DNA from: Flavobacteriaceae bacterium
GTDB taxonomy: Bacteria; Bacteroidota; Bacteroidia; Flavobacteriales; Flavobacteriaceae
Direction of reading: 5' to 3'
Assembly: GCA_965224465.1 (NCBI GenBank)
Contig: OZ245049.1
Location: 1,140,001-1,172,000, forward strand
DNA: 32,000 bases
This document shows positions 10,700 to 30,592 of the stretch, piece after piece. Each line of letters opens with the position of its first letter. Within the stretch, counting starts at the first letter, position 1. Below the pieces are notes generated by a model that was given only the letters and a program-made list of their open reading frames with translations, was not told the origin of the DNA and searched no databases. Position numbers and translations under genes: made by a program.

Positions 10700-11398
10700 C
10701 TACCAACCCCCTATGCGTATTCTTTCTTTTTGCTGCTCAATGGTATCTTCTGGAGAGGGAATAGCACTAGGATACAAAGGTTTTGGAAACCCGTTTTTCT
10801 TTCTGCGCTCATAATCTTGCTGACGATAATCGTCAAAAGCAGTCCCAGGTGGTAAAGGCCTATTTTTATCCATATACCATACATAAAAACTCCACACTTT
10901 ATAGGGTTCACTGCCATAAAAAGTATACAACAAATCTAATTTTCTTGGCTTAAAAGTATTTACAAACTTTAAATACTCAAAATCTGAATAACCTTCAATA
11001 TTACCTGTTACAGCGATTACAACTTTTAAATCTTTAAAATCTCCTTTCAGTGGAGGAAGAAAAAAAACATCTGGATAGGTAACCGTTCCTTCCAAACGAT
11101 TCAATTCAAAAATTTTATATTCTTTTTTTGCAAACAAACCGTAATACACCCCAAATAAGCCAAGTAAAATCAATAGAATGGTTACGACTACTTGTTGAAT
11201 CCCTTCTATTGGTATCATAAGCCATATAGCAATCACAATGGCTCCTATACCGAATTGCATATAAGAATTTAACCTATGATCATGCGTTTCGAAATAGATT
11301 TTATCATCAGCACGTTTTAACATTGCTTTATCTGATTTACTAACCAAACTCTTATCTATTTCTATCGGATCTTCTATAATTTGATGTGGTTGATACAT
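10700..11398 (-). CDS. Two-TM membrane protein, putative immunity paralog (copy 8; cassette type a-x)
   Basis: 232 aa, the last unit of the array. Its 3' flank runs directly into the IS30 remnant. Confidence 0.8.
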   Translation of the reverse strand: MYQPHQIIEDPIEIDKSLVSKSDKAMLKRADDKIYFETHDHRLNSYMQFGIGAIVIAIWLMIPIEGIQQVVVTILLILLGLFGVYYGLFAKKEYKIFELNRLEGTVTYPDVFFLPPLKGDFKDLKVVIAVTGNIEGYSDFEYLKFVNTFKPRKLDLLYTFYGSEPYKVWSFYVWYMDKNRPLPPGTAFDDYRQQDYERRKKNGFPKPLYPSAIPSPEDTIEQQKERIRIGGW

Positions 11399-11534
11399 TT
11401 TATTTCGTTCTATAAGATTCTAACATTTTAATACTATTTTCTGTAACAATTTTTGGCTTCTAAACTACTTGTCTCACACACACTTTAAAAACTGCAACTC
11501 TCCTATAAAAAAAACAACATAACATGCTGTTTCC

Positions 11535-12233
11535 CTACCAACCCCCTATGCGTATTCTTTCTTTTTGCTGCTCAATGGTATCTTCTGGAGAGGGAATAGC
11601 ACTAGGATACAAAGGTTTTGGAAACCCGTTTTTCTTTCTGCGCTCATAATCTTGCTGACGATAATCGTCAAAAGCAGTCCCAGGTGGTAAAGGCCTATTT
11701 TTATCCATATACCATACATAAAAACTCCACACTTTATAGGGTTCACTGCCATAAAAAGTATACAACAAATCTAATTTTCTTGGCTTAAAAGTATTTACAA
11801 ACTTTAAATACTCAAAATCTGAATAACCTTCAATATTACCTGTTACAGCGATTACAACTTTTAAATCTTTAAAATCTCCTTTCAGTGGAGGAAGAAAAAA
11901 AACATCTGGATAGGTAACCGTTCCTTCCAAACGATTCAATTCAAAAATTTTATAGTTCTTTTTTGCAGATAAACCGTAATAAATCCAAAATAATCCACCA
12001 ATTACTAATACTGTTGGTAATATTCTTTGAGATGGTATTTCTGAATAATAAAAAAGCCCTATTCCAAACACAATGGCTCCTATACCGAATTGCATATAAG
12101 AATTTAACCTATGATCATGCGTTTCGAAATAGATTTTATCATCAGCACGTTTTAACATTTCTTTATCTGATTTACTAACCAAACTCTTATCTATTTCTAT
12201 CGGATCTTCTATAATTTGATGTGGTTGATACAT
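11535..12233 (-). CDS. Two-TM membrane protein, putative immunity paralog (copy 7; cassette type a-y)
   Basis: 232 aa. The C-terminal 138 aa are identical to copy 8, but the TM hairpin cassette is the alternative y version. Confidence 0.8.
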   Translation of the reverse strand: MYQPHQIIEDPIEIDKSLVSKSDKEMLKRADDKIYFETHDHRLNSYMQFGIGAIVFGIGLFYYSEIPSQRILPTVLVIGGLFWIYYGLSAKKNYKIFELNRLEGTVTYPDVFFLPPLKGDFKDLKVVIAVTGNIEGYSDFEYLKFVNTFKPRKLDLLYTFYGSEPYKVWSFYVWYMDKNRPLPPGTAFDDYRQQDYERRKKNGFPKPLYPSAIPSPEDTIEQQKERIRIGGW

Positions 12234-12369
12234 TTTATTTCGTTCTATAAGATTCTAACATTTTAATACTATTTTCTGTAACAATTTTTGGCTTCTGCAT
12301 TGCTTCTAACACACACACTTTAAAAACTGCAACTCTCCTATTAAAAAAACAACATAACATGCTGTTTCC

Positions 12370-13068
12370 CTACCAACCCCCTATGCGTATTCTTTCTTTT
12401 TGCTGTTCAAGGGTATCTTCTGGAGTAGGAATAGCACTAGGATACAAAGGTTTTGGAAACCCGTTTTTCTTTCTGCGCTCATAATCTTGCTGACGATAAT
12501 CGTCAAAAGCAGTCCCCGGAGGTAAGGGCCTATTTTTATCCATATACCACACATAAAAACTCCACTCTTTATATGGATCACTGCCATAAAAAGTAAACAA
12601 CAAATCTAATTTTCTTGGCTTAAAAGTATTTACAAACTTTAAATACTCAAAATCTGAATAACCTTCAATACTACCTGTTACTGCGATTACAACTTTTAAA
12701 TCTTTAAAATCTCCTTTCAATGGAGGAAGAAAAAAAACATCTGGATAGGTAACCGTTCCTTCCAAACGATTCAATTCGAAAATTTTATATTCTTTTTTTG
12801 CAAACAAACCGTAATACACCCCAAATAAGCCAAGTAAAATCAATAGAATGGTTACGACTACTTGTTGAATCCCTTCTATTGGTATCATAAGCCATATAGC
12901 AATCACAATGGCTCCTATACCCCAGTAAATATTCGATTTCAAGAAAAAAGCAAAAGATCTAAAATAAATTTCATCATCTGCTCTATTCAAAGATTTTTTA
13001 TCTGATTTACGAACCAAACTCTTATCTATTTCTATCGGATCTTCTATAATTTGATGTGGTTGATACAT
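12370..13068 (-). CDS. Two-TM membrane protein, putative immunity paralog (copy 6; cassette type b-x)
   Basis: 232 aa. The 5' half matches copy 4, while the extreme 3' end (ERIRIGGW) matches copies 7 and 8. The copy is therefore itself a mosaic. Confidence 0.8.
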   Translation of the reverse strand: MYQPHQIIEDPIEIDKSLVRKSDKKSLNRADDEIYFRSFAFFLKSNIYWGIGAIVIAIWLMIPIEGIQQVVVTILLILLGLFGVYYGLFAKKEYKIFELNRLEGTVTYPDVFFLPPLKGDFKDLKVVIAVTGSIEGYSDFEYLKFVNTFKPRKLDLLFTFYGSDPYKEWSFYVWYMDKNRPLPPGTAFDDYRQQDYERRKKNGFPKPLYPSAIPTPEDTLEQQKERIRIGGW

Positions 13069-13205
13069 TTTATTTCGTTCTATAAGATTCTAACATTTTA
13101 ATACTATTTTCTGTAACAATTTTTGGCTTCTAAACTACTTGTCTCACACACACTTTAAAAGCTGCAACTCTCCTATTAAAAAAAACAACATAACATGCTG
13201 TTTCC

Positions 13206-13904
13206 CTACCAACCCCCAATACGTTTTCTTTCTTTTTGCTGTTCAATGGTATCTTCTGGAGTGGGAATAGCACTAGGATACAAAGGTTTTGGAAACCCGT
13301 TTTTCTTTCTGCGATCATAATCTTGCTGACGATAATCGTCAAAAGCAGTCCCCGGAGGTAAGGGCCTATTTTTATCCATATACCATACATAAAAACTCCA
13401 CACTTTATAGGGTTCACTGCCATAAAAAGTATACAACAAACCTAATTTTCTTGGCTTAAAAGTATTTACAAACTTTAAATACTCAAAATCTGAATAACCT
13501 TCAATATTACCTGTTACTGCGATTACAACTTTTAAATCTTTAAAATCTCCTTTCAGTGGAGGAAGAAAAAAAACATCTGGATAGGTAACCGTTCCTTCCA
13601 AACGATTCAATTCGAAAATTTTATATTCTTTTTTTGCAAACAAACCGTAATAAATCCAAAATAATCCACCAATTACTAATACTGTTGGTAATATTCTTTG
13701 AGATGGTATTTCTGAATAATAAAAAAGCCCTATCCCAAACACAATGGCTCCTATACCGAATTGCATATAAGAATTTAACCTATGATCATGCGTTTCGAAA
13801 TAGATTTTATCATCAGCACGTTTTAACATTGCTTTATCTGATTTACGAACCAAACTCTTATCTATTTCTATCGGATCTTCTATAATTTGATGTGGTTGAT
13901 ACAT
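13206..13904 (-). CDS. Two-TM membrane protein, putative immunity paralog (copy 5; cassette type a-y)
   Basis: 232 aa, with the same cassette pair as copies 3 and 7. Shares KLGLLY and DYDRRKK with copy 3. Confidence 0.8.
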   Translation of the reverse strand: MYQPHQIIEDPIEIDKSLVRKSDKAMLKRADDKIYFETHDHRLNSYMQFGIGAIVFGIGLFYYSEIPSQRILPTVLVIGGLFWIYYGLFAKKEYKIFELNRLEGTVTYPDVFFLPPLKGDFKDLKVVIAVTGNIEGYSDFEYLKFVNTFKPRKLGLLYTFYGSEPYKVWSFYVWYMDKNRPLPPGTAFDDYRQQDYDRRKKNGFPKPLYPSAIPTPEDTIEQQKERKRIGGW

Positions 13905-14041
13905 TTTATTTCGTCCTATAAGATGCTAACATTTTAATACTATTTTCTGTAACAATTTTTGGCTTCTAAACTACTTGTATCACACACACTTTAAAAACTG
14001 CAACTCTCCTATTAATAAAAACAACATAACATGCTGTTTCC

Positions 14042-14740
14042 CTACCAACCTCCAATACGTTTTCTTTCTTTTTGCTGCTCAATGGTATCTTCTGGAGTAG
14101 GAATAGCACTAGGATACAAAGGTTTTGGAAACCCGTTTTTCTTTCTGCGCTCATAATCTTGCTGACGATAATCGTCAAAAGCAGTCCCAGGTGGTAAAGG
14201 CCTATTTTTATCCATATACCATACATAAAAACTCCACACTTTATAGGGTTCACTGCCATAAAAAGTATACAACAAATCTAATTTTCTTGGCTTAAAAGTA
14301 TTTACAAACTTTAAATACTCAAAATCTGAATAACCTTCAATATTACCTGTTACTGCGATTACAACTTTTAAATCTTTAAAATCTCCTTTCAATGGAGGAA
14401 GAAAAAAAACATCTGGATAGGTAACCGTTCCTTCCAAACGATTCAATTCGAAAATTTTATATTCTTTTTTTGCAAACAAACCGTAATACACCCCAAATAA
14501 GCCAAGTAAAATCAATAGAATGGTTACGACTACTTGTTGAATCCCTTCTATTGGTATCATAAGCCATATAGCAATCACAATGGCTCCTATACCCCAGTAA
14601 ATATTCGATTTCAAGAAAAAAGCAAAAGATCTAAAATAAATTTCATCATCTGCTCTATTCAAAGATTTTTTATCTGATTTACGAACCAAACTCTTATCTA
14701 TTTCTATCGGATCTTCTATAATTTGATGTGGTTGATACAT
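14042..14740 (-). CDS. Two-TM membrane protein, putative immunity paralog (copy 4; cassette type b-x)
   Basis: 232 aa, with cassettes KSLNRADDEIYFRSFAFFLKSNIYW and IAIWLMIPIEGIQQVVVTILLILLGLFGVYYGL. The N-terminal 100 aa are identical to copy 6. Confidence 0.8.
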   Translation of the reverse strand: MYQPHQIIEDPIEIDKSLVRKSDKKSLNRADDEIYFRSFAFFLKSNIYWGIGAIVIAIWLMIPIEGIQQVVVTILLILLGLFGVYYGLFAKKEYKIFELNRLEGTVTYPDVFFLPPLKGDFKDLKVVIAVTGNIEGYSDFEYLKFVNTFKPRKLDLLYTFYGSEPYKVWSFYVWYMDKNRPLPPGTAFDDYRQQDYERRKKNGFPKPLYPSAIPTPEDTIEQQKERKRIGGW

Positions 14741-14877
14741 TTTATTTCGTTCTATAAGATTCTAACATTTTAATACTATTTTCTGTAACAATTTTTGGCT
14801 TCTAAACTACTTGTCTCACACACACTTTAAAAGCTGCAACTCTCCTATTAAAAAAAACAACATAACATGCTGTTTCC

Positions 14878-15576
14878 CTACCAACCCCCAATACGTTTTC
14901 TTTCTTTTTGCTGTTCAATGGTATCTTCTGGAGTGGGAATAGCACTAGGATACAAAGGTTTTGGAAACCCGTTTTTCTTTCTGCGATCATAATCTTGCTG
15001 ACGATAATCGTCAAAAGCAGTCCCCGGAGGTAAGGGCCTATTTTTATCCATATACCATACATAAAAACTCCACACTTTATAGGGTTCACTGCCATAAAAA
15101 GTATACAACAAACCTAATTTTATTGGCTTAAAAGTATTTACAAACTTTAAATACTCAAAATCTGAATAACCTTCAATATTACCTGTTACTGCGATTACAA
15201 CTTTTAAATCTTTAAAATCTCCTTTCAGTGGAGGAAGAAAAAAAACATCTGGATAGGTAACCGTTCCTTCCAAACGATTCAATTCAAAAATTTTATATTC
15301 CTTTTTTGCAGATAAACCGTAATAAATCCAAAATAATCCACCAATTACTAATACTGTTGGTAATATTCTTTGAGATGGTATTTCTGAATAATAAAAAAGC
15401 CCTATCCCAAACACAATGGCTCCTATACCGAATTGCATATAAGAATTTAACCTATGATCATGCGTTTCGAAATAGATTTTATCATCAGCACGTTTTAACA
15501 TTGCTTTATCTGATTTACTAACCAAACTCTTATCTATTTCTATCGGATCTTCTATAATTTGATGTGGTTGATACAT
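14878..15576 (-). CDS. Two-TM membrane protein, putative immunity paralog (copy 3; cassette type a-y)
   Basis: 232 aa, with cassettes AMLKRADDKIYFETHDHRLNSYMQF and FGIGLFYYSEIPSQRILPTVLVIGGLFWIYYGL. Shares the KLGLLY and DYDRRKK substitutions with copy 5. Confidence 0.8.
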   Translation of the reverse strand: MYQPHQIIEDPIEIDKSLVSKSDKAMLKRADDKIYFETHDHRLNSYMQFGIGAIVFGIGLFYYSEIPSQRILPTVLVIGGLFWIYYGLSAKKEYKIFELNRLEGTVTYPDVFFLPPLKGDFKDLKVVIAVTGNIEGYSDFEYLKFVNTFKPIKLGLLYTFYGSEPYKVWSFYVWYMDKNRPLPPGTAFDDYRQQDYDRRKKNGFPKPLYPSAIPTPEDTIEQQKERKRIGGW

Positions 15577-15713
15577 TTTATTTCGTTCTATAAGATTCTA
15601 ACATTTTAATACTATTTTCTGTAACAATTTTTGGTTTCTAAACTACTTGTATCACACACACTTTAAAAACTGCAACTCTCCTATTAATAAAAACAACATA
15701 ACATGCTGTTTCC

Positions 15714-16412
15714 CTACCAACCTCCAATACGTTTTCTTTCTTTTTGCTGCTCAATGGTATCTTCTGGAGTAGGAATAGCACTAGGATACAAAGGTTTTGG
15801 AAACCCGTTTTTCTTTCTGCGCTCATAATCTTGCTGACGATAATCGTCAAAAGCAGTCCCAGGTGGTAAAGGCCTATTTTTATCCATATACCATACATAA
15901 AAACTCCACACTTTATAGGGTTCACTGCCATAAAAAGTATACAACAAATCTAATTTTCTTGGCTTAAAAGTATTTACAAACTTTAAATACTCAAAATCTG
16001 AATAACCTTCAATATTACCTGTTACAGCGATTACAACTTTTAAATCTTTAAAATCTCCTTTCAATGGAGGAAGAAAAAAAACATCTGGATAGGTAACCGT
16101 TCCTTCCAAACGATTCAATTCAAAAATTTTATATTCTTTTTTTGCAAACAAACCGTAATACACCCCAAATAAGCCAAGTAAAATCAATAGAATGGTTACG
16201 ACTGCTTGTTGAATCTCTTCTATTGATACCATAAGCCATATAGCAAACACAATGGCTCCTATGCCGAATTTCATATAAGTATTCAGCCTATGACCATGCG
16301 TTTCAAAATAGATTTTATCATCAGCACGTTTTAACATTCCTTTATCTGATTTACTAACCAAACTCTTATCTATTTCTATCGGATCTTCTATAATTTGATG
16401 TGGTTGATACAT
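15714..16412 (-). CDS. Two-TM membrane protein, putative immunity paralog (copy 2; cassette type a-x, slightly diverged)
   Basis: 232 aa. Cassette 1 is GMLKRADDKIYFETHGHRLNTYMKF and cassette 2 is FAIWLMVSIEEIQQAVVTILLILLGLFGVYYGL. The C-terminal domain differs from copy 8 at 2 positions. Confidence 0.8.
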   Translation of the reverse strand: MYQPHQIIEDPIEIDKSLVSKSDKGMLKRADDKIYFETHGHRLNTYMKFGIGAIVFAIWLMVSIEEIQQAVVTILLILLGLFGVYYGLFAKKEYKIFELNRLEGTVTYPDVFFLPPLKGDFKDLKVVIAVTGNIEGYSDFEYLKFVNTFKPRKLDLLYTFYGSEPYKVWSFYVWYMDKNRPLPPGTAFDDYRQQDYERRKKNGFPKPLYPSAIPTPEDTIEQQKERKRIGGW

Positions 16413-16548
16413 TTTATTTCGTTCTATAAGATGCTAACATTTTAATACTATTTTCTGTAACAATTTTTGGCTTCTGCATTGCTTCTAACACACACACTTT
16501 AAAAACTGCAACTCTCCTATAAAAAAAACAACATAACATGCTGTTTCC

Positions 16549-17247
16549 CTACCAACCCCCTATGCGTTTTCTTTCTTTTTGCTGTTCAATGGTATCTTCT
16601 GGAGTAGGAATAGCACTAGGATACAAAGGTTTTGGAAACCCGTTTTTCTTTCTGCGCTCATAATCTTGCTGACGATAATCGTCAAAAGCAGTCCCAGGTG
16701 GTAAGGGCCTATTTTTATCCATATACCATACATAAAAACTCCACTCTTTATAGGGCTCACTGCCATAAAAAGTATACAACAAACCTAATTTTCTTGGCTT
16801 AAAAGTATTTACAAATTTTAAATACTCCCTATCTGAATAACCTTCAATACTACCTGTAACAGCGATTACAACTTTTAAATCTTTAAAATCTCCTTTCAAT
16901 GGAGGAAGAAAAAAAACATCTGGATAGGTAACCGTTCCTTCCAAACGATTCAATTCAAAAATCTTATAGTTCTTTTTTGCAAATAAACCGTAATAAATCC
17001 AAAACAATCCACCAATTACTAATACTGTTGGTAATATTCTTTGAGATGGTATTTCTGAATAATAAAAAAGCCCTATCCCAAACACAATGGCTCCTATGCC
17101 CCAATAAATATTCGATTTCAAGAAAAAAGCAAAAGATCTAAAATAAATTTCATCATCTGCTCTATTCAAAGATTCTTTATCTGATTTACGAACCAAACTC
17201 TTATCTATTTCTATCGGATCTTCTATAATTTGATGTGGTTGATACAT
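16549..17247 (-). CDS. Two-TM membrane protein, putative cognate immunity protein (array copy 1 of 8; cassette type b-y)
   Basis: 232 aa. The ATG lies 1 nt after the stop of the 1116-aa ORF (TAAaATG). No signal peptide. Two adjacent TM helices at about residues 50-88 and a conserved C-terminal domain of about 140 aa. Cassette 1 is SLNRADDEIYFRSFAFFLKSNIYW and cassette 2 is FGIGLFYYSEIPSQRILPTVLVIGGLFWIYYGL. Confidence 0.8.
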   Translation of the reverse strand: MYQPHQIIEDPIEIDKSLVRKSDKESLNRADDEIYFRSFAFFLKSNIYWGIGAIVFGIGLFYYSEIPSQRILPTVLVIGGLFWIYYGLFAKKNYKIFELNRLEGTVTYPDVFFLPPLKGDFKDLKVVIAVTGSIEGYSDREYLKFVNTFKPRKLGLLYTFYGSEPYKEWSFYVWYMDKNRPLPPGTAFDDYRQQDYERRKKNGFPKPLYPSAIPTPEDTIEQQKERKRIGGW

Positions 17248-17248
17248 T

Positions 17249-20200
17249 TTATTTCGTTCTATAAGATGCTAACATTTTAATACTGTTTTCTGTAACAATT
17301 TTTGGCTTCTGCATTGCTTCTTCTTCTGACATATTTTGTAATTTAACCTTACGTACATTTATAGGCTGTTGATATCGATGTGCTGTAAATATACTCGTCA
17401 TATATCTTGTATTATTGTTCACTTTATTATGTAATTGTGCGTTGGTAAATACGTAGCGTTTGTTATGATTAAAATCAGAAGGAGTATACTCATCATCTTG
17501 TACACGAACTCTAAAGGTAAACAATACTTCGCCATCAGGATAATCCATATACCTCCAATAAAACAGATCAGGTAAACCGAAACTAACAATACAATTAGGA
17601 GTCATTTTATCCGCATCAAAAAGGAAGCTCTTTTCAGGAAAACTAGATATAAATGTAGTGATTTCGAAACGTCTTCCTTTTTTTAATGGAGCTTTAATAC
17701 CAAAGGGATAAAACCATGCTTTAATATCTAAATCATAAAATTCACTAATATTTTGAACAGAATATATAGAGGCTCTAAAACGATTGGTACTTACATTATG
17801 TATGTCAAATCCTTTTATAGGCGCAACATAACCAGCATTAGGTTCTGGTTCAAGAACAACTAAACTAGGAATGGCTATGTCTAAGAAAGCTGTATATGCT
17901 TTTTCAAAATTACTAAAACTCGTATATTCTTTAGCTTGTGCGCTTACAAACCATGGATTGATAACTGTTGCGGTACTGTGAGACACCAAGCGATTGATAT
18001 AATCATGTGGTAATTCCGTATCTTTAGGAGGCAATGCATAATCACTTAATGGAAAATTCTTAAAATAGCCTTCGAGTTGGGTGTCAACAAAATATTTTTG
18101 AGCCAAATAGTAACAGCCTAACAAAGCCCCTCCAAGAAGTGCTGCTGGCCAAAAACCAAGAGCAAATACTGCTACGCCTCCACCAATTAAAGCAGTAACA
18201 TCTGCAAATAAGAAAACAGCGCCTATTCCCGCAGCCATTCCGAACAAGGCTGCAGCATCGTTATCGCGCACAGAAAAACTCCGATAGCTATCTCTAGAGG
18301 CAGTAAAAACGGTAATGGCAGAACTTACTATTTTAAGTTTTGCTATATTTTTAGAAAAATCATCCATGCTACTACGAAAAATTTCACCTACAAATCCTTT
18401 TTTTGCTAGATGATTCTCATACAAATTCATTTTTTCAATTAAAGACATACTTGCCGCTCCCAATTGAACACTAGCAAACCCGAATTTTTCAAACCCTCTA
18501 TAAGAAGGGTCTTTTAAAAAACTATTAACAGCTTTAGACAACACAAACACCTCAATTAAAACAACAAGTCCTCCGAAAGCGTTTGATTTTAGAACTTTTT
18601 CTGCTTCTCCTTTAAAACGTTTTGGAAGGTTTCCTTTTAAATTTACTTCAAGTTTTTTGTTTTTGATAAGTGCTTCAGCACTTTGTTTAGTCATTTTTGT
18701 ATACTCAAGGTGCCAGTATTTTTTATATTTATGTAATGTCGCTTTTTCCCCATTAATTTCAAAACGCAAATTGCGGTTATTGATTTTAGTTTCAAATTCT
18801 TCTAGTGCTTTAAATTTAAAGGTAGCTACACGTGTGTTTTTATCTCTAAAATAAGATATTTTACTTTTTACAGGTATGGGAAGTTTTTTTTGCTTTAGCT
18901 TAATAAAAGCACCTATATAGCTATCATGATTTGCATAAGCCTTTATGATTCTTTCAATAACTCCTACTGTTTTATTTATTATACTCAAAACAAACATATC
19001 CTGTATGTCGATCTTATAATCTAATATTTTGGTGGATTTATTAAAAACACTTGGATTTTCGTTGTATAAAGTTTCGTTTATATGGATGTACCAGGGATCC
19101 TTTTTAGGCTCATAGACATTTGTTAAATCTAAATGACGGTCATACATATTAGGATAACTGCCTAAAGCAATGAAATGTACTGCTATAACACCTTTGGCAT
19201 CTTCAATCCTATCGGGAATACTATTCATATAATCATCCGTTGCATCTTGATAATAGTCGGACTTCAAAAAAGTTCCCAAATCATCTCTATACGTATTAAT
19301 TACCTTGCGTTGCACCTTGCGTTCTTCTACGCCTAATATTTTTTCTAGTTTTATTTTTTCGACACCTTTTTGTTCGGTAAATGGTCGAAATACGCCCCCT
19401 ACTGTAAAATCTAAAACACGGTTGGCAACGGTGTTTTTTATTACATCTGAATTGTATTTTTCACTATTATCATGGTTGTTGTACACAAAATCATACGTAA
19501 GTTGCGCCAATCTATGTAAATATTGAATTTGTCTGGATTTTTCAGTATCGGATTTTGGTAATTGCTCCCCTTTTTGAAGCATAGAAAGTATCTCCACGGT
19601 AGACTTCCCTGTTTGTAAACTTGCCATCATCGCTTTAAGTCTCAAAATTTCACTGTCAATACCTACACATATTTCATTGGCACAGCCAATAGGGTCATCC
19701 AGTATAATAAACATATCTTCTAACAAGATATTCCCACCTAGCTTATCTTGTCTCTTTTCGTCGTCAGCAATTCTCGTAAGTATCTCACGGTATTTATACG
19801 CCATAGGATTCCTATCACTTACAACTATAGGTGTATTATTATAATGCGAAACTGACATATTATTTGTTTCTCCATCTTTAGGGATTCCTTTACAGAGTAC
19901 TTTTACCTTACAACGTTGACCCCTTTTTTCTTTGCTATCTAAAAGCTCTTTTACATAATTTGCCTTCCATTGTACAGGAGAAAAAGCAAAGCAATAGGTT
20001 TGGTTATTCCGATCAAGTATTTTATACATAATACCAAGATCGAAAGTGGTCCGAACATCTAAATAGCTACCGTCTTTTTTGTTTTTACTCCAAAGTATTT
20101 CATGTAACAATCCAAAATCATCGACCCTAAATTCCTTAAAATCATCATGAGGTGTTTGATCATTTATCATATAAACATAGCCTGCTCTTAAAGGAGTTTT

Positions 20201-20599
20201 CGATACCGAAAAATTTTCATTAGCTGGAATTTCTGAATCCATAATCACAGCATTCAGTTGTACAAAAGGTATAAAATCCTGATTTTTTAGTTCAGACTCA
20301 GAAGGTTTTTCGTTGATAACCTTCCCAACAGTTGCTTTTTTTTCTTCATTAAAAAAAATAGCTTTAAAATATGCGGCACTATCAGGTGATGAATAACTAG
20401 TTGTTGGCACAGAATAATCAGAACAAACATCAAAAAGTCCATACCGTAAAAAATGAAGTTTTATCCCTCTTTTTTCTATATCCAATGTAGGCATTTCGTT
20501 GCATACAACATTTTTATATGCAGCTGTAAATGAGAGCTGTGTAATTATTTGTTTGAATTCTTTTTCTTGATTTTTTTCAAGTGTTATATTTTCTTTCAT
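17249..20599 (-). CDS. Large protein without a signal peptide, with a C-proximal glycine-zipper TM cluster. Putative membrane-disrupting polymorphic toxin or T6SS-type effector (VasX-N-like motifs).
   Basis: 1116 aa with no N-terminal signal peptide. Residues ~105-320 carry IPFVQLN, PLRAGYVYMI, FAFSPVQW and FIILDDPIGCANEI, which I recall as the motif order of VasX-type effector N-terminal regions. Residues ~673-835 hold several hydrophobic helices, including AALFGMAAGIGAVFLFADVTALIGGGVAVFALGFWPAALLGGALLGCYYLA. The gene is translationally coupled to the downstream two-TM gene. Function is inferred, not demonstrated. Confidence 0.6.
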   Translation of the reverse strand: MKENITLEKNQEKEFKQIITQLSFTAAYKNVVCNEMPTLDIEKRGIKLHFLRYGLFDVCSDYSVPTTSYSSPDSAAYFKAIFFNEEKKATVGKVINEKPSESELKNQDFIPFVQLNAVIMDSEIPANENFSVSKTPLRAGYVYMINDQTPHDDFKEFRVDDFGLLHEILWSKNKKDGSYLDVRTTFDLGIMYKILDRNNQTYCFAFSPVQWKANYVKELLDSKEKRGQRCKVKVLCKGIPKDGETNNMSVSHYNNTPIVVSDRNPMAYKYREILTRIADDEKRQDKLGGNILLEDMFIILDDPIGCANEICVGIDSEILRLKAMMASLQTGKSTVEILSMLQKGEQLPKSDTEKSRQIQYLHRLAQLTYDFVYNNHDNSEKYNSDVIKNTVANRVLDFTVGGVFRPFTEQKGVEKIKLEKILGVEERKVQRKVINTYRDDLGTFLKSDYYQDATDDYMNSIPDRIEDAKGVIAVHFIALGSYPNMYDRHLDLTNVYEPKKDPWYIHINETLYNENPSVFNKSTKILDYKIDIQDMFVLSIINKTVGVIERIIKAYANHDSYIGAFIKLKQKKLPIPVKSKISYFRDKNTRVATFKFKALEEFETKINNRNLRFEINGEKATLHKYKKYWHLEYTKMTKQSAEALIKNKKLEVNLKGNLPKRFKGEAEKVLKSNAFGGLVVLIEVFVLSKAVNSFLKDPSYRGFEKFGFASVQLGAASMSLIEKMNLYENHLAKKGFVGEIFRSSMDDFSKNIAKLKIVSSAITVFTASRDSYRSFSVRDNDAAALFGMAAGIGAVFLFADVTALIGGGVAVFALGFWPAALLGGALLGCYYLAQKYFVDTQLEGYFKNFPLSDYALPPKDTELPHDYINRLVSHSTATVINPWFVSAQAKEYTSFSNFEKAYTAFLDIAIPSLVVLEPEPNAGYVAPIKGFDIHNVSTNRFRASIYSVQNISEFYDLDIKAWFYPFGIKAPLKKGRRFEITTFISSFPEKSFLFDADKMTPNCIVSFGLPDLFYWRYMDYPDGEVLFTFRVRVQDDEYTPSDFNHNKRYVFTNAQLHNKVNNNTRYMTSIFTAHRYQQPINVRKVKLQNMSEEEAMQKPKIVTENSIKMLASYRTK

Positions 20600-20930
20600 G
20601 GCGTCTTTTTCAAAAATATCAGAGGTAGATACCCCACATTTTTAACGTAAAAAACAATGGTACATCCTATTTTTATCTTCCTAGATATAAGTCTATTTCC
20701 AAGAGAAAAGAACAATTACTATTCCCTTTAGACTTCAAAGATACGTAAGAAAAGTTATATGCCGCTTACAACAAATCGTTTTTTTAATAAATTGTGAAAT
20801 AACATTTATTATAGCATCATACCTCCAATCAATAACCGTTAAATTGACTGGGTATTATCTTAATAATTTTATGACGCCTTTATGCCAATTAAAATCCAAA
20901 ATGACCTATATAAATAGGTTGTTTTACGTG

Positions 20931-21064: not shown

Positions 21065-21113
21065 AAAAAAAAAACAAAAAAAGAGCGAAAAAACACATCA
21101 TGTCTTTCCGCTC
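21065..21113 (-). terminator. Probable intrinsic terminator of lon
   Basis: On the minus strand, a bulged stem gagcg-g-aaa ... ttt-cgctc is followed by a long T-run (tttttttgtttttttttt), about 35 nt after the lon stop. Confidence 0.5.
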
Positions 21114-21145
21114 CTTTATGGCTTTTTGCTTAAAGCTATTTCCTA

Positions 21146-23623
21146 TTACACCTCAAATTTAATAGGATTTTTTACTTTTTGTTTGGTCAAAGCTAAATCA
21201 ATTACTTCTTTCATATCAGAAACATAGCTGAATTTCAATCCTTTTAGGTAACTAGCTTTAATTTCTTCAACATCTTTTTTGTTCTCAATAGACAAAATCA
21301 ATTCTTTAATATTGGCTCTTTTTGCAGCTAATATTTTTTCTTTGACTCCTCCTACTGGCAATACTTTACCTCTTAATGTAATTTCACCAGTCATAGCCAT
21401 TTTTGATTTCACTTTTCGCTGAGTTAACACAGAAACCAACGATGTTAACATAGTAATACCAGCACTAGGCCCATCTTTTGGAGTCGCACCTTCTGGCACG
21501 TGAATATGAACTTTATAGGCATCTAATACTTTCTGGTCAACACCAAAATCTGCTGCATGTGCCTTGATGTATTCCATGGCAATAGTTGCTGATTCCTTCA
21601 TCACCTTTCCTAGATTCCCTGTAATGGTCAAGCCTTTTCCTTTAGAGATGATAGACTCTATAAATAAAATATCTCCACCTACACTTGTCCATGCCAAACC
21701 TGTTACAACACCCGCTACATCATTGTTTTCGTATTTGTCACGTTCTAAATGAGACGGTCCTAATACTTTCTCGATAATTTCTATCGTTATATTGGTTTCA
21801 TATTCTTCATCCAAAGCAATCGACTTGGCTGCAAAACGAACCATCTTGGCCAATTGTTTTTCCAATCCACGCACTCCAGATTCACGAGTATAAGCTACTA
21901 CAATTTTCTCGATGGATTTTATATCCATTTGAATATACTTCTTGGTTAAACCATGGTCTTTAATTTGTTTTGGCAATAAATGACGTTTGGCTATTTCAAT
22001 TTTTTCTTCTATCGTATAGCCCGACACATTGATAATCTCCATACGATCTCTCAATGCCCAAGGAATTGTAGATAAACTATTGGCAGTAGCAATAAATAAG
22101 ACTTTAGATAAATCGTAGTCCAACTCTAAATAATTATCGTAAAAAGAGGCGTTTTGTTCTGGATCCAATACTTCTAACATTGCAGATGAAGGATCTCCAT
22201 TATGACTTGAAGATGCCAATTTATCTATCTCATCCAATACATATACAGGATTAGAAGTTCCTACTTTTTTCAAGTCCTTAATAATACGACCTGGCATAGC
22301 ACCAATATATGTTTTCCTATGACCACGAATTTCAGCTTCGTCGCGTAATCCTCCAAGAGACATACGTACATATTTACGACCAATAGCTTCTGCAATAGAT
22401 TTACCCAAACTTGTCTTCCCAACCCCTGGAGGTCCGTACAAACACAAAATTGGTGATTTCATATCTCCTTTCAGTTTTAAAACCGCCAAGTGTTCGATGA
22501 TACGTTCCTTGACCTTGTCCAAACCAAAATGATCTCTATCTAGTATTTTCTGAGCTCTTTTCAAGTCAAAAACATCCTTCGTGTACTCATTCCATGGCAA
22601 TTCCAACAACAAATCTAAATAATTTCGTTGCACCGAATATTCTGCCATTTGTGGATTCATACGTTGCAAACGACCGAGTTCCTTTTCAAAGGTTTCTTTT
22701 ACATCCTTATTCCATTTTTTAGCCTTGGCTTTTACACGCATTTCGTCCAATTCTTCATCATACGAAACACCTCCCAATTCTTCCTGAATGGTTTTTAACT
22801 GCTGATGTAAATAATACTCACGTTGCTGTTGGTCCATATCCACTCTTGTTTTGGATTGGATATCATTTTTTAACTGCAGGCGTTGTAATTCAGCATCCAT
22901 TTTTTGTAAGGTCACCAAAGCACGTTCTTTCAAATTGTTAATTTCTAACAATTCTTGTTTTTCCTTCACAGGTAAATTCATGTTTGCTGACACAAAATTA
23001 ATCAAGAAAGGTTTGCTTTCTATATTGCGTATCGCAAAAGTAGCTTCTGATGGTAGGTTCGGATTTTCTTTAACAATACGTGTCGCCAATTCTTTAATAG
23101 AATCAATAATCGCATCAAACTCTTTTTCATTTTCCTCAGACCTGTCTTCAATAATCTCTTTGGTTGTGGCCTTCATAAAAGGTTCGTCTTGAATCATACT
23201 TTCAATTTCAAAACGTTTTTTACCTTGAATGATAACCGTAGTATTTCCATCAGGCATTTTCAATACCTTCAAAATACTTGCAACAGTCCCCGTTTTATAA
23301 ATATCATTTTCAGTAGGATCCTCTATTTCTTCATCCATTTGGGCTACCACACCTATAATTTTATTTCCTTTGCTGGCTTGTTTAATCAACTCAATGGATT
23401 TATCACGCCCAGCAGTAATTGGAATTACAACCCCTGGAAAAAGTACAGTATTTCGCAAAGGCAAAATAGGTAAAGTGTCAGGAACATCCTCTTTATTTAT
23501 CTCCTCTTCGTCCTCGGGAGTCATTAAAGGAATTAATTCTGCGTCTTCATCCATCATACTATGCAATGACAGATTGTCAAACTTTAAAAACTTAGATCTA
23601 CTCATATATATATTTTCAGTCAC
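21146..23623 (-). CDS. lon: ATP-dependent Lon protease (LonA)
   Basis: 825 aa. Lon N-terminal domain ([19 protein letters not shown]), AAA+ Walker [10 protein letters not shown], Walker [10 protein letters not shown] and a protease domain with catalytic Ser in PKDGPSAGI. The exact start among N-terminal Met codons is uncertain. Confidence 0.97.
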
Positions 23624-26918: not shown

Positions 26919-29900
26919 TTAAACAATCACAACACTGCTTACGCCATTGGATTTTTTATGAATTTGAATCTGCGTAGGAATCCGTTCTTTTAAATTATCA
27001 ACATGGGAAATAATACCAATCATTTTACCTTGAGCCTGTAGTGTTTCTAACGTTGCAATCACCGTTTCTAAGGTACTACTATCCAAGGTTCCAAATCCTT
27101 CATCAATAAACAGCGAATCAATATTCACGTTGTTGCTGGCCAAATCAGATAAGCCCAACGCCAATGCCAAACTTATAATAAATTTCTCACCTCCACTGGA
27201 AGTATCCACATAGCGCACTTGACCTGTTTGATAATGGTCAATTAAATTAAAATTAAGCTCCTCCCCTGTTTTGTAATTGCTATTCATTTTTAGAGAATAA
27301 CGCTTGTTTAATTTAAACAAATGAATGTTTGCAAAAGCGATTAAGTTTTGCAAAGTCAATCGTTGTACATAGGTATTAAAGGCATCTTTTGAACCCCCTA
27401 ATAAATGAATTAAATCGGTCCATTTTTTAAGTGATTTCTCTTGAATTTTTATCGCATCAAAAACCCCTTGATTCCTAGAAATCACTTCTGCTTCTTTCTT
27501 GAAAATCTGCTTTATTTCTCCAATTCGTTGCAGTACTGTATCTTTCGTTTCTTTTAAAGATAGCCACTTTTCACGCGCCTCAAGAAAGCTAATCTCAAAA
27601 GACTTTAACATATTGTGCTTCGATGTTTTTAACTCTAAACTTTCTTTTAAAGCTAAAATCTCAGTAGAAGATGTATCAATTTTTTGTTTTATAATTTCTA
27701 ATGCTTCCTTCGCATCTTTTGATAAAAGAGCTGTAATCACCGCCTCTTTATTCAAAAAATCGCTTTCCAAAATCTCTTTTTCTAATGCCAATAGCAACGC
27801 ATCTAACCTTGGTTTGATTTTATCTAGTTCCTTTAAGTTTTCCTGCTCCTGTCCTTGTAGTTTTGTTTGTTTCTCTTTTAATAACAGAAAATCCTTTTGA
27901 TTTTTTTCGAATTGTACACTCGCTTCTTTTTTAGAAATTTTCAGTAGCTGATGTTGCTGCGCTAAACTAAGCTCTTTAGGCAACAGGGCATGCCTATCTT
28001 TTTGTAATTCTTCTAAATTAGAAACCTGTACTGCTTGTTCCTTTGTTAACAGCTCAAAATCCGTAAGGTGTTTTTGCAATGTATCTGTATCACTTTTCTT
28101 TCTCAATACAAATTCCGATACCTCCTGCTGTACTTTTAGCAACTGATTTTTTGTAAGGTTATATTTTTGAATTGCCTTTTCCAATCGATTCAGAAAATCA
28201 ACAGTTTCCGAGGGCTTCGGAACATCAAAGTCAAAATCAGAAAAACTTGACTCAAGCTCTTTTTCTAATACTTCTAATTGTGTAACTATCTCAGAAATCT
28301 CACTGCTTTTACGTTCAACATCCTTTTGAAGCAAGTCCTTTTGATTCTTTTCAGTATCTATTAGACCTAATAAGCGAATATTTTTTTCATGTTGATTTGC
28401 ATACGAACTCTCCAATTCAGACTTTTTACTTATCACTTCTTGAGCCGTTTTTATTTTAACATCAAGACCTTCCATTTGTTTTTCTAATAGATTATTATCA
28501 CTCTTAATAATAGTGATTTCATCCAAATTGGCATGCCCTTGAAATGCGCTGGCTTTTTTTAATAGAGACACTTCTAGCAATACAAATTCCTCAAGCCTTT
28601 TTTTATAGGTATCAAGACTGCTAACAGACTTCCCCATTTCTCTATTTAAAAGAACAATCACTTGCTGATGTTCCCTTACTTTTTTCTTGCGTTCTTCCAA
28701 TACTTTTTGAGCCTCAGAGATCGTTGTCGAAATATAAGTTGTCACATACGGATGTTCCGTAGCACCACATAAATTACAGGCTTTCCCTTCTTCCAATTTT
28801 AGACGCTCCTCCTCAAAGCCCTGAATTGCCAATTCCAATTGCACTATTTTTTCGGCATCTGATACCTGTAGTTTTATGTCTAATTCTTTAACAGTCGCAT
28901 CTTTCAATCGTTTTTCTATAGAATGGAACTCTAATTCGGTTTGCTTAATTCCTTTTTTAGAACTGTCTATTAACAGCGTGTTTTCAGAGAAACTTTCTGC
29001 TAAAACAAAAAACTGAATTCCATTTTTAAGATGGGAATTAACCCGCTCTTTTTCTTCTAACAAAGCAGAAAGATCCGCACTGAGAACCTCTTTTTTAATA
29101 CGCTCTAATGCTGATTTCAATTCACCGAACACAACATCTTCTTTCTTTTTTAGTGAATTATTATGACTTATGGATTCGGAAGTTTTTGAAATTTTAAGTT
29201 GGCTATCCTCATTAATTTTAACTAGTACAGCTTGCTCCTTACTCTTAGAATTCAATAGATAAAGCTGTTGGTTCCAATGGTTAAAATTAGGCTCAATAGC
29301 AGCCATTAACTGATGTTTTTCTATATATTGAGTATGTATTTTTTCTTCTGATCTAGCAGACACCAATGCAATATCTAATTCACTTATCTTTTTTTCTAAT
29401 CCCTTTTTCTCATCCTTAAAACGTATCAGTTTTGGGCTGTTATTTTTGATTATATCCTCGGTAGCAACTGCCGATGCTTCAATTCTCGCTACGCGATCTA
29501 ATTTAGGCAACCATTGGTTAAAACTTTCTTCTTCTTTTTCTACCTCTAGCTTTGCCCTTGATACCGCCGTTTTCTGTAAGTCCAAGTTCGGTTCTATTGT
29601 AGCTAAAGAAAACTTAAGATCCTTCCCTATACGTTTTTTTTCCTCCAATTGCTCCTCCAAGCGTTTTACAGCCGCCAAATCGTCTTTAAAAACGGCCGCT
29701 TTATCATGATGTATCAGTTGTTCAAATACGTGATGATGTAGCTCCTTGTTTTTTTGAAGTTCCAAGTTTTTGGTTTCATTATCAGAAATTTCTTTCTGTA
29801 AATTCTCCGATGCTATATACCAATTTTTAACGGTTTCTAGCGTAATGAGTCCTTGCTCAATTTCTATAGATTCTTTATTTTTTAAAACTTGCTCACTATA

Positions 29901-30578
29901 TAACAGCTCTTTTTTAGAAACATCCAGAATATCATCACTATTTATTTTAGAACGAATCCCTTCTAATTTTTTACGTTCCTCACCTAATTTACGCGTAATA
30001 ACATCTCCAATTTTCTTGTAAATTTCCTCTCCCGTAATTTGCTCTAGCAAAGTTCCTTTATCCTTTGAATTGGCAGATAAAAAAGAAGCAAATTCCCCTT
30101 GCGCCAACATTACTGAACGTAAAAACTGGTTGTAATCTAACTGAGTTACACGTACAACAGCCTCTTGTACCTCCCGTTTTTTCTCTGCAATTATCAAGCC
30201 CTCAGAAATATTTTTAAGACGTACTTCTTCTTGTGGCTTATTTAACACTTTTCCGTGCTTAGAAATCAGTCGCATATACCAACTAGCCTCATACGTAATT
30301 CCTCTATTCTTAAATAAAACCCGCGCCATAGCGTCACGTGCACCAAAACTAATTACATCCTTGAGTCCTGCCTTGATATTGGATTGTTTGAAACGCGGCA
30401 CTTGATGATACAAAGCTATTGTAATTGCATCCAAAATAGTGGTCTTACCTGCACCCGTAGGTCCGGTAATCGCATACAATCCAACATTTTCGAAATGAGG
30501 TCCTTCTAGATCAATACAAATAACCGTATCAGATTTAAGAGAATATAAATTCTGTAGTTCAATTTTTAAAATTTTCAT
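26919..30578 (-). CDS. sbcC: Exonuclease SbcCD, ATPase subunit C (SMC/Rad50-like)
   Basis: 1219 aa. N-terminal Walker A GPTGAGKTT, a long coiled coil with a CxxC zinc hook (CNLCGATEHP), a C-terminal signature SGGEKF and Walker B LFIDEGFGTLD. Lies directly downstream of sbcD. Confidence 0.93.
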   Translation of the reverse strand: MKILKIELQNLYSLKSDTVICIDLEGPHFENVGLYAITGPTGAGKTTILDAITIALYHQVPRFKQSNIKAGLKDVISFGARDAMARVLFKNRGITYEASWYMRLISKHGKVLNKPQEEVRLKNISEGLIIAEKKREVQEAVVRVTQLDYNQFLRSVMLAQGEFASFLSANSKDKGTLLEQITGEEIYKKIGDVITRKLGEERKKLEGIRSKINSDDILDVSKKELLYSEQVLKNKESIEIEQGLITLETVKNWYIASENLQKEISDNETKNLELQKNKELHHHVFEQLIHHDKAAVFKDDLAAVKRLEEQLEEKKRIGKDLKFSLATIEPNLDLQKTAVSRAKLEVEKEEESFNQWLPKLDRVARIEASAVATEDIIKNNSPKLIRFKDEKKGLEKKISELDIALVSARSEEKIHTQYIEKHQLMAAIEPNFNHWNQQLYLLNSKSKEQAVLVKINEDSQLKISKTSESISHNNSLKKKEDVVFGELKSALERIKKEVLSADLSALLEEKERVNSHLKNGIQFFVLAESFSENTLLIDSSKKGIKQTELEFHSIEKRLKDATVKELDIKLQVSDAEKIVQLELAIQGFEEERLKLEEGKACNLCGATEHPYVTTYISTTISEAQKVLEERKKKVREHQQVIVLLNREMGKSVSSLDTYKKRLEEFVLLEVSLLKKASAFQGHANLDEITIIKSDNNLLEKQMEGLDVKIKTAQEVISKKSELESSYANQHEKNIRLLGLIDTEKNQKDLLQKDVERKSSEISEIVTQLEVLEKELESSFSDFDFDVPKPSETVDFLNRLEKAIQKYNLTKNQLLKVQQEVSEFVLRKKSDTDTLQKHLTDFELLTKEQAVQVSNLEELQKDRHALLPKELSLAQQHQLLKISKKEASVQFEKNQKDFLLLKEKQTKLQGQEQENLKELDKIKPRLDALLLALEKEILESDFLNKEAVITALLSKDAKEALEIIKQKIDTSSTEILALKESLELKTSKHNMLKSFEISFLEAREKWLSLKETKDTVLQRIGEIKQIFKKEAEVISRNQGVFDAIKIQEKSLKKWTDLIHLLGGSKDAFNTYVQRLTLQNLIAFANIHLFKLNKRYSLKMNSNYKTGEELNFNLIDHYQTGQVRYVDTSSGGEKFIISLALALGLSDLASNNVNIDSLFIDEGFGTLDSSTLETVIATLETLQAQGKMIGIISHVDNLKERIPTQIQIHKKSNGVSSVVIV

Positions 30579-30592
30579 AGTCCGCTACGTTA

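Follow-up and report, generated by a model that had tools for sequence, protein, structure and literature searches.

We analysed a 32,000-nt stretch of contig OZ245049.1 from a Flavobacteriaceae bacterium (assembly GCA_965224465.1; hereafter the window). The window contains an array of eight intact open reading frames (ORFs), each exactly 232 codons long, on the minus strand at positions 10700–17247. The array lies immediately downstream of a gene (17249–20599, minus strand, 1116 aa) that is predicted, from a match to PF20249 and from its context, to encode a pore-forming effector of a type VI secretion system (T6SS) of the VasX/BTH_I2691 family; 1 nt separates the effector stop codon from the first array start. 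The copies, designated u1 to u8 in the direction of transcription, start at positions 17247, 16412, 15576, 14740, 13904, 13068, 12233, and 11398, with a unit period of 835 or 836 nt from start to start and spacers of 136–137 nt. The array was delimited by its ORFs and by a repeat search; Tandem Repeats Finder detected no array in the window, because the 836-nt period exceeds the 500-nt limit of the tool.

Comparison of the eight translated copies reveals alternating constant and variable segments. Residues 1–19 are the same in all copies and the motif GIGAIV at residues 50–55 is invariant, as a preliminary description of the locus had stated. Two further segments, cassette 1 and cassette 2, occur in two dissimilar versions each (a or b, and x or y, respectively), and all four combinations are present. 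The order of types given in that description (b-y, a-x, a-y, b-x, a-y, b-x, a-y, a-x, in the direction of transcription) is confirmed: u1 (16549–17247) is of type b-y; u2 (15714–16412) is of type a'-x', comprising diverged subtypes; u3 (14878–15576), u5 (13206–13904), and u7 (11535–12233) are of type a-y; u4 (14042–14740) and u6 (12370–13068) are of type b-x; and u8 (10700–11398) is of type a-x, all on the minus strand. In u2, cassette a' differs from the other a cassettes by 8–9 nt, and cassette x' differs from the other x cassettes by 5–6 nt.

The boundaries between constant and variable segments are sharp at the nucleotide level, and segment-wise difference counts uphold the earlier claim of identity cliffs, with divergence concentrated in two blocks. 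In particular, nt 1–57 show 0 differences among copies; nt 58–150 (cassette 1) show 34–36 differences per 93 nt between a and b; nt 151–165 (linker) show 0 differences; nt 166–291 (cassette 2) show 43–51 differences per 126 nt between x and y; nt 292–699 show at most 17 differences per 408 nt between copies; and the spacers show 0–10 differences per ~137 nt. The cassette versions are thus ~38% divergent in both blocks, and the near-identical parts of the gene are codons 1–19, the 15-nt linker, and the last ~135 codons (~98–232). For a copy starting at position S, cassette 1 spans S-57 to S-149, the linker S-150 to S-164, and cassette 2 S-165 to S-290; these are, respectively, 17098–17190, 17083–17097, and 16957–17082 in u1, and 11249–11341, 11234–11248, and 11108–11233 in u8. 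The plus-strand linker string ACAATGGCTCCTAT occurs exactly 8 times, compared with 0 occurrences expected. The constancy of the C-terminal part had been overstated: there are 11 variable columns, with up to 9 pairwise differences, rather than at most 6 variable positions in the last ~138 residues. Residues 20 (R/S), 89 (F/S), and 93 (E/N) sort independently of cassette type.

Recombination in the array and age of the cassettes

The pairwise homoplasy index (PHI; own implementation with site permutations) was 0.198, compared with 0.541 ± 0.011 under 5000 permutations (p < 2e-4), and the four-gamete lower bound, Rmin, was 13 for the 699-nt coding sequence. Relatedness in the C-terminal part (u2≈u4, almost identical; u3≈u5; and u7=u8) cuts across cassette type. 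Copy u8 is a recent mosaic: it matches u3 exactly over nt 1–165, its cassette 2 carries a single difference from those of u4 and u6, and its sequence equals that of u7 between nt 280 and a point 20 nt beyond the stop codon. This pattern, with u3 on the left, u4/u6 in cassette 2, and u7 on the right, places a breakpoint inside the 15-nt GIGAIV linker; u8 is a u7-like copy that received a converted tract of 114–198 nt from a b-x donor. The earlier suggestion that the linker serves as a crossover point is supported by one breakpoint of u8, but mosaicism extends beyond that junction, as the Rmin value over the coding sequence indicates. The earlier preference for recombination or gene conversion over point-mutation drift is well founded, given a PHI p value below 1/5000, the Rmin value, the mosaic structure of u8, and a ~10-fold higher synonymous divergence in the cassettes. 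Taken together, the sequence comparisons indicate that homologous exchange reassorted both blocks, with at least one endpoint in the GIGAIV-coding linker, yielding the four combinations.

The units also record how the array grew. The final ~75 nt of the effector gene (original at 17248–17322) recur directly before each of u2–u8, at S+1 to S+75 (16413–16487, minus strand, in the case of u2). The tail copies are near-identical from "...GAAGCAATGCAGAAGCCAAAAATTGTTACAG..." to a shared TAA-A-ATG junction and carry 1–2 mismatches relative to the 3' end of the resident effector gene. The presence of an effector tail before each of u2–u8 indicates that the duplicated unit began inside the 3' end of the effector gene. 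Positions 15121–14344, from the u3 C-terminus into u4, are an exact 778-bp repeat of positions 13449–12672, from the u5 C-terminus into u6, at an offset of 1672 bp, indicating that u3–u4 and u5–u6 are products of a very recent two-unit (1672-bp) duplication (12672–15121, minus strand); u5 is a near-duplicate of u3, and u6 matches u4 fully over nt 1–397. As a consequence of this duplication, the eight copies represent approximately five independent entities. Copies u7 and u8 share 440 identical bases, and the 778-bp and 440-base exact repeats indicate that unequal crossing-over is ongoing. The array expanded by unequal crossing-over of the 835/836-bp unit, with the two-unit duplication as the latest step.

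Nei–Gojobori estimates of synonymous divergence (dS) are 0.74–1.23 between cassette versions, with ratios of nonsynonymous to synonymous divergence (dN/dS) of 0.38–0.61, and dS is 0.06–0.13 among copies in the C-terminal part. Synonymous sites are saturated in cross-species comparisons of the cassettes, and nonsynonymous differences (pN) were used for these. Type a has a pN of 0.15 relative to its orthologue at L077, a metagenome contig having a single a-y-like gene after the closest known toxin (64% identical), compared with 0.47 relative to b; type y has a pN of 0.21 relative to the L077 orthologue, compared with 0.40 relative to x; and type b has a pN of 0.24 relative to its counterpart at locus L011, compared with 0.41 relative to a. 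Clear counterparts in other species were found for types a, b, and y only; type x has no clear counterpart, and a cassette-2 type of Tenacibaculum maritimum considered as x-like was dropped, since its nonsynonymous distances to x and y are equal. Types a, b, and y thus each have a relative in another species that is closer than the alternative type within their own array, indicating that the a/b and x/y splits predate the species splits. Cross-species pN values are 0.15–0.24 for the cassette types and 0.12–0.15 for the constant domain.

Substitutions show no adenine bias, fall at all codon positions, and include more transversions than transitions. The cassettes are old alleles, with each type under purifying selection, rather than products of in-situ hypermutation or neutral drift, and the constant region was homogenised within the array after the cassettes split. 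The near-identity of the spacer, codons 1–19, and codons ~98–232 is maintained by recent duplication, gene conversion, and strong purifying selection.

The protein family, the toxin, and related loci

An AlphaFold2 model of the 232-aa protein (mean pLDDT 86, pTM 0.81) contains strands at residues 27–30 and 34–38, transmembrane (TM) helices at residues 41–61 and 67–89, and then a beta-rich domain with three helices. Flanking charges fit an N-in/C-in topology, which suggests a predicted two-pass inner-membrane protein having both termini in the cytoplasm. In the model, cassette 1 would form mostly a cytoplasmic beta-hairpin, together with the inner half of TM1; the linker would form the Gly-rich middle of TM1, where G50 is invariant family-wide; and cassette 2 would form the outer half of TM1, the periplasmic loop, and TM2. 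With both termini in the cytoplasm, cassette 2 would face the periplasm, the side on which the toxin arrives. The preliminary description placed the variation in the TM hairpin and treated the cytoplasmic domain as constant; this is correct for cassette 2, which maps to the hairpin and its loop, but not for cassette 1, which is largely cytoplasmic or juxtamembrane in the model.

The cytoplasmic domain (residues ~100–232) has 24 invariant columns over 73 sequences and contains the motifs EYLKFVNTFKPRK, WYMDKNRPLPPG, DFERRK..GFPKPLY, and a terminal IGGW; this degree of conservation hints at contact with an invariant partner, which could be a structural element of the pore or a component of the host. 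At another locus (L020), a copy from a different subfamily still bears the locus-specific C-terminal tail, which suggests either that the 3' end evolves in concert or that it has become co-adapted to the toxin of that locus. The family comprises 465 clusters at 50% identity (E≤1e-3). The NCBIfam model bfi2_fam (NF053700) gives weak matches to 31 of 62 distant family members, with a best E=7e-11 and scores well short of the 350-bit cutoff, and no match to the window copies; by profile comparison, kinship of the array family to the Bacteroides immunity protein Bfi2 is at most at the superfamily level.

The effector matches PF20249 (VasX_N/MIX) over residues 134–229 with 34.1 bits (cutoff 27 bits; E=3.5e-8), and it matches NCBIfam BTH_I2691 (NF041559) weakly, with 34.1 bits, below the 150-bit cutoff; it represents a divergent Bacteroidota branch of the family, as has been reported for the Bacteroides toxin Bte2 (PMC12718326). 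Hydrophobic segments lie at residues 668–696 and 780–832 (Kyte–Doolittle). Effector homologues are named "toxin VasX" by NCBI, and each of the 23 homologues for which a Pfam domain is precomputed carries PF20249. Proteins of the VasX family form ion-selective pores and are delivered into the periplasm (PMC13133200; PMC12718326; bioRxiv 10.64898/2026.08.24.746647), and inner-membrane immunity proteins bind and neutralise other VasX-family toxins (PMC13133200; bioRxiv 10.64898/2026.08.24.746647).

The same arrangement recurs elsewhere. In species-representative genomes, we identified 71 loci, in most of which a family member directly follows a VasX-like ORF of ~950–1270 aa. Arrays of 2–10 copies are common among these loci, which are mostly from Flavobacteriaceae, with additional loci from Fulvivirga, Marinilabiliaceae, Bacteroidales metagenome-assembled genomes (MAGs), and Capnocytophaga. 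In T. maritimum, a PAAR gene and a gene for a 1118-aa VasX_N protein are followed by 3–4 family members; the common four-copy array, found in one assembly, in 15 similar places, and in one further assembly, combines two cassette-1 types and two cassette-2 types of its own in all four possible ways. Tenacibaculum sp. A30 has six copies, which present two cassette-1 types (alpha and beta) and two cassette-2 types (p and q) in all four combinations, together with two more cassette-2 types. Across proteins, one cassette 1 is paired with four cassette-2 types, and the reverse is also seen. Other arrays show the same contrast in synonymous divergence between variable blocks and constant regions; in L022, however, constancy of the protein is maintained mainly by purifying selection (pS, the synonymous counterpart of pN, 0.17–0.28; pN ~0).

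Orthologous loci have T6SS genes directly upstream: the PAAR gene in T. maritimum and, in a MAG (L001), genes for TssN, two Hcp, VgrG, and PAAR. At the latter locus, a 133-aa ORF homologous to the C-terminal end of VasX-like toxins (10814–11215) lies between two immunity genes; the fragment and the family member that follows it resemble a displaced toxin-tip/orphan-immunity module as in contact-dependent inhibition (CDI), Rhs, and Vibrio systems. The same T6SS locus encodes (12083–20702) an 888-aa protein followed by at least four tandem 326-aa paralogues and fragments, none with a Pfam match, possibly a further effector accompanied by an immunity array of its own. In two T. maritimum loci (L003 and L005, 13255–16758), a three-gene block that encodes AAA_23/LmuB_C and MC3 domains and a 370-aa protein, and that looks like a Lamassu-type defence system, lies directly downstream of the immunity array; the block is absent in L002 and L004, indicating that a variable defence spot adjoins the array. 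A family member and a VasX-like toxin (P0039 and P0128) occur as isoforms of one Trinity "gene" (DN1221_c0_g1) in a eukaryotic transcriptome assembly, probably from bacterial contamination or a symbiont, and their joint assembly hints that toxin and immunity genes are co-transcribed.

In the window, the array and effector gene are flanked (21146–23623 and 26919–31801) by housekeeping genes, including sbcCD, lon, thioredoxin, uvrB, and an ECF sigma factor gene; no mobile-element genes were found in the window, and the toxin gene and its array together resemble an orphan effector locus placed within the core genome. Outside the window, the same contig encodes a further family member (P0056; 240 aa, 51% identical) and a VasX_N protein (P0135; 823 aa, 56% identical over 75% of the query). 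The source genome therefore has at least one further family member and one second VasX_N protein, and the strain probably carries a second toxin-immunity locus. A terminator-like hairpin 3' of lon (21079–21117, minus strand) is the likely upstream limit of the effector-array transcription unit, and no terminator-like sites were found inside the array. A sigma-70 promoter scan returned fewer sites than shuffled sequence, the sigma-70 model being uninformative for Bacteroidota. ORFs of 68–97 aa recur in each repeat unit, overlapping the 232-codon genes out of frame (10711–10917, 11546–11752, 12381–12587, 13130–13423, 13966–14259, 14802–15095, 15638–15931, and 16560–16766, minus strand) or on the opposite strand (11963–12178, 13634–13885, and 15306–15521, plus strand); these are almost certainly repeat by-products, not genes.

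Function of the array

We consider, with a probability of roughly 0.6, that the locus is a poly-immunity array of a VasX-family T6SS toxin, the variants of which broaden protection against the toxins of non-kin. Its two components differ in strength: an immunity function is predicted with good support from synteny, context, and remote homology, and a broadening of specificity against variant toxins is plausible, with some evidence against it. According to this reading, the eight expressed-looking paralogues would be two-pass inner-membrane proteins, predicted partners of the toxin encoded immediately upstream; the variable membrane module would recognise incoming toxin variants; the invariant cytoplasmic domain would provide a common neutralising or anchoring function; and the array would constitute a small combinatorial library, widening protection against non-kin VasX-like toxins. 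A role in specificity fits the predicted exposure of cassette 2 to the periplasm, the conservation of each cassette type between species, the retention of at least two deeply diverged types in arrays that are undergoing homogenisation of their flanks, and the recurrence of four-way reassortment in two other arrays.

Several observations weigh against the poly-immunity reading. The 232-aa protein has no match in Pfam, NCBIfam, PADLOC, PDB sequence profiles, or Foldseek searches against the PDB (best Foldseek match E=2.2, with weak PH-like matches of negligible probability), and its link to Bfi2 is transitive and far under the family cutoff. No T6SS structural, VgrG, or PAAR genes were found in the 32-kb window. 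A dN/dS below 1 in the cassettes means that there is no signature of positive selection. The hydrophobic region of the toxin ranks among its better-conserved parts, with 0.68–0.74 identity between genera, compared with 0.20–0.38 for its N-terminus. The cytoplasmic domain is more conserved (0.8–0.94) than any part of the toxin (0.15–0.52), which would be odd for a simple toxin binder. Other T. maritimum strains have a broken copy or a pseudogene in the array beside an identical toxin. The proposed exchange point, at 15 nt, is short for RecA-type exchange. The source species is represented by a single genome and its nearest relative's toxin is at most 64% identical, such that the comparisons are with other species; the best match in the scan of species-representative genomes was 68% identical.

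The strongest competing explanation is one of dosage, in which the array simply makes more antidote against a stoichiometrically neutralised pore-former, the cassettes are equivalent anchors, and the combinations are by-products of exchange. We regard it as unlikely but worth serious weight: the cassette dN/dS values, the toxin TM region that is not hypervariable, the T. maritimum arrays that vary beside identical toxins, and the ongoing amplification seen in the very recent two-unit duplication and the exact repeats of 440–778 bp are all in line with it. It does not account for cassette types that are conserved across species nearly as strongly as the constant domain, or for the fact that at least three independent arrays retain two or more deeply split types; with conversion tracts homogenising flanks of ~600 nt, drift should fix one cassette type per array, unlike what is observed. 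There is a smaller chance, on the order of a long shot, that the 232-aa protein is not an immunity protein at all but another toxin accessory, such as a membrane chaperone, an export helper, or a host-factor-binding module. The absence of matches in Pfam, PDB sequences, and Foldseek and a cytoplasmic domain far more conserved than the toxin are consistent with such a role; however, it is typical of immunity genes that the gene lies 3' of the toxin gene, nearly coupled to its stop codon, and is multiplied in arrays. The remote link to Bfi2 also argues for immunity, as does the L001 MAG, in which another family member comes after a C-terminal fragment of the toxin gene. To our knowledge, the known VasX adaptors are soluble and are encoded upstream of the toxin, which likewise counts against an accessory role.

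Two further explanations concern the origin of the mosaics. Exact repeats of up to 778 bp in the single assembly available for the source organism raise the question of whether mosaic copies are chimeras from the assembly of near-identical repeats, which we consider very improbable: the eight ORFs are intact, are exactly 232 codons long, and have copy-specific single-nucleotide differences, and the 5.24-Mb contig points to long-read assembly. As a general explanation, chimerism is also unlikely because the same architecture and four-way reassortment are found in many independent assemblies, including complete T. maritimum genomes and Tenacibaculum sp. A30. Least probable is programmed diversification by a diversity-generating retroelement, an invertase shufflon, or pilin-type silent cassettes, which the sharp cassette boundaries with conserved flanks superficially resemble. 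This was rejected, and is effectively refuted, as all copies are complete genes in the same start context, rather than one expressed copy supplied from silent fragments. Neither reverse transcriptase nor recombinase genes were found in the window, and no meaningful inverted repeats were found; the lack of adenine bias, the excess of transversions over transitions, and the presence of the cassettes as ancient alleles in other species likewise disagree with such a system.

A more far-reaching version of the poly-immunity reading, which we advance only tentatively and consider rather less likely to be right than wrong, is that the family constitutes a Bacteroidota-wide modular platform. In it, an invariant cytoplasmic domain that neutralises the effector or binds a host factor would be joined to two recognition cassettes that can be exchanged independently, one a juxtamembrane hairpin and the other a transmembrane loop facing the periplasm, and selection would keep old alleles and favour reassortment and a broad immunity repertoire. 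If true, one locus would encode a small combinatorial repertoire, with a logic akin to that of combinatorial receptor repertoires, for toxin immunity.

Relation to known systems

In the usual picture of T6SS immunity, one toxin is paired with one antidote, and extra antidotes are acquired through horizontal transfer or effector displacement; the locus described here suggests another route, through tandem duplication and reassortment of sub-gene cassettes in a single membrane-immunity scaffold. If the cassettes set specificity, the five natural variants would provide a chimera panel for recognition of VasX-type pore-formers in the membrane, the mechanism of which has been described as still open (PMC13133200), and would help to account for the survival of marine Flavobacteriaceae, among them the fish pathogen T. 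maritimum, in the face of one another's toxins. The hyperconserved, unannotated cytoplasmic domain would be a lead on pore neutralisation. Poly-immunity arrays and orphan and duplicated immunity genes are already established (PMC5361080; PMC7604300; PMC3482391); in the literature searched, we found no earlier description of this Bacteroidota-restricted family, its hyperconserved domain, or recurrent two-cassette reassortment.

The nearest parallel in Bacteroidota is the GA3 T6SS of Bacteroides fragilis, in which, as here, a VasX-like T6SS(iii) toxin gene is followed by one or more immunity genes (Bfe2/Bfi2 in strain 638R and Bte2/Bti2a,b in strain 9343; PMC12718326). Bfi2 is listed as the immunity protein of 638R Bfe2, and Bti2a,b as a tandem pair of immunity genes in strain 9343 (PMC7604300); the 638R toxin has also been called Bte2 and assigned to the VasX family (PMC12718326). 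The present locus differs in having eight copies rather than one or two, in encoding proteins without a bfi2_fam match, and in having a hyperconserved C-terminal WYMDKNRPLPPG...IGGW domain and intragenic reassortment, neither of which we found described for Bfi2/Bti2 in the literature searched. A further point of difference is that Bte2 depends on Rnf, a requirement considered specific to gut Bacteroidales.

The orphan immunity arrays of Vibrio cholerae, which arise from sequential effector displacement (PMC5361080), and the AID clusters of gut Bacteroidales, as they are presented in PMC7604300, share with this locus tandem immunity genes 3' of a T6SS effector gene, remnants of effector 3' ends before these genes, and a proposed protection against non-kin toxins. 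In contrast to displacement arrays and AID clusters, whose members stem from different effector alleles or families or were gained horizontally, sometimes together with a recombinase, the present array comprises one family, draws its diversity from two sub-gene cassettes within the gene, and has no recombinase in the window. The resident effector's own 3' tail on every copy indicates tandem duplication, rather than stacking of displaced alleles or of horizontally acquired genes.

The immunity proteins of pore-forming colicins (such as Cai, Cbi, and ImmE1) are small integral inner-membrane proteins that neutralise a membrane-inserting toxin by recognising it through helix–helix contacts; their specificity resides in transmembrane segments and the loops next to them, and can be switched in chimeras. 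By analogy, the array proteins most likely work in a similar manner. They have no detectable homology to colicin immunity proteins (Pfam, PDB) and differ from them in having two TM helices, a large conserved cytoplasmic domain, and tandem reassorted genes. Finally, theory on concerted evolution with maintained variable blocks, according to which selection can favour diversity among array copies (PMC9252282), shares with this locus homogenised constant regions beside sharply bounded, deeply diverged blocks; the present case differs from the tandem families treated there in being a bacterial toxin-immunity locus, with 836-bp units and sub-gene cassettes of ~100 nt.

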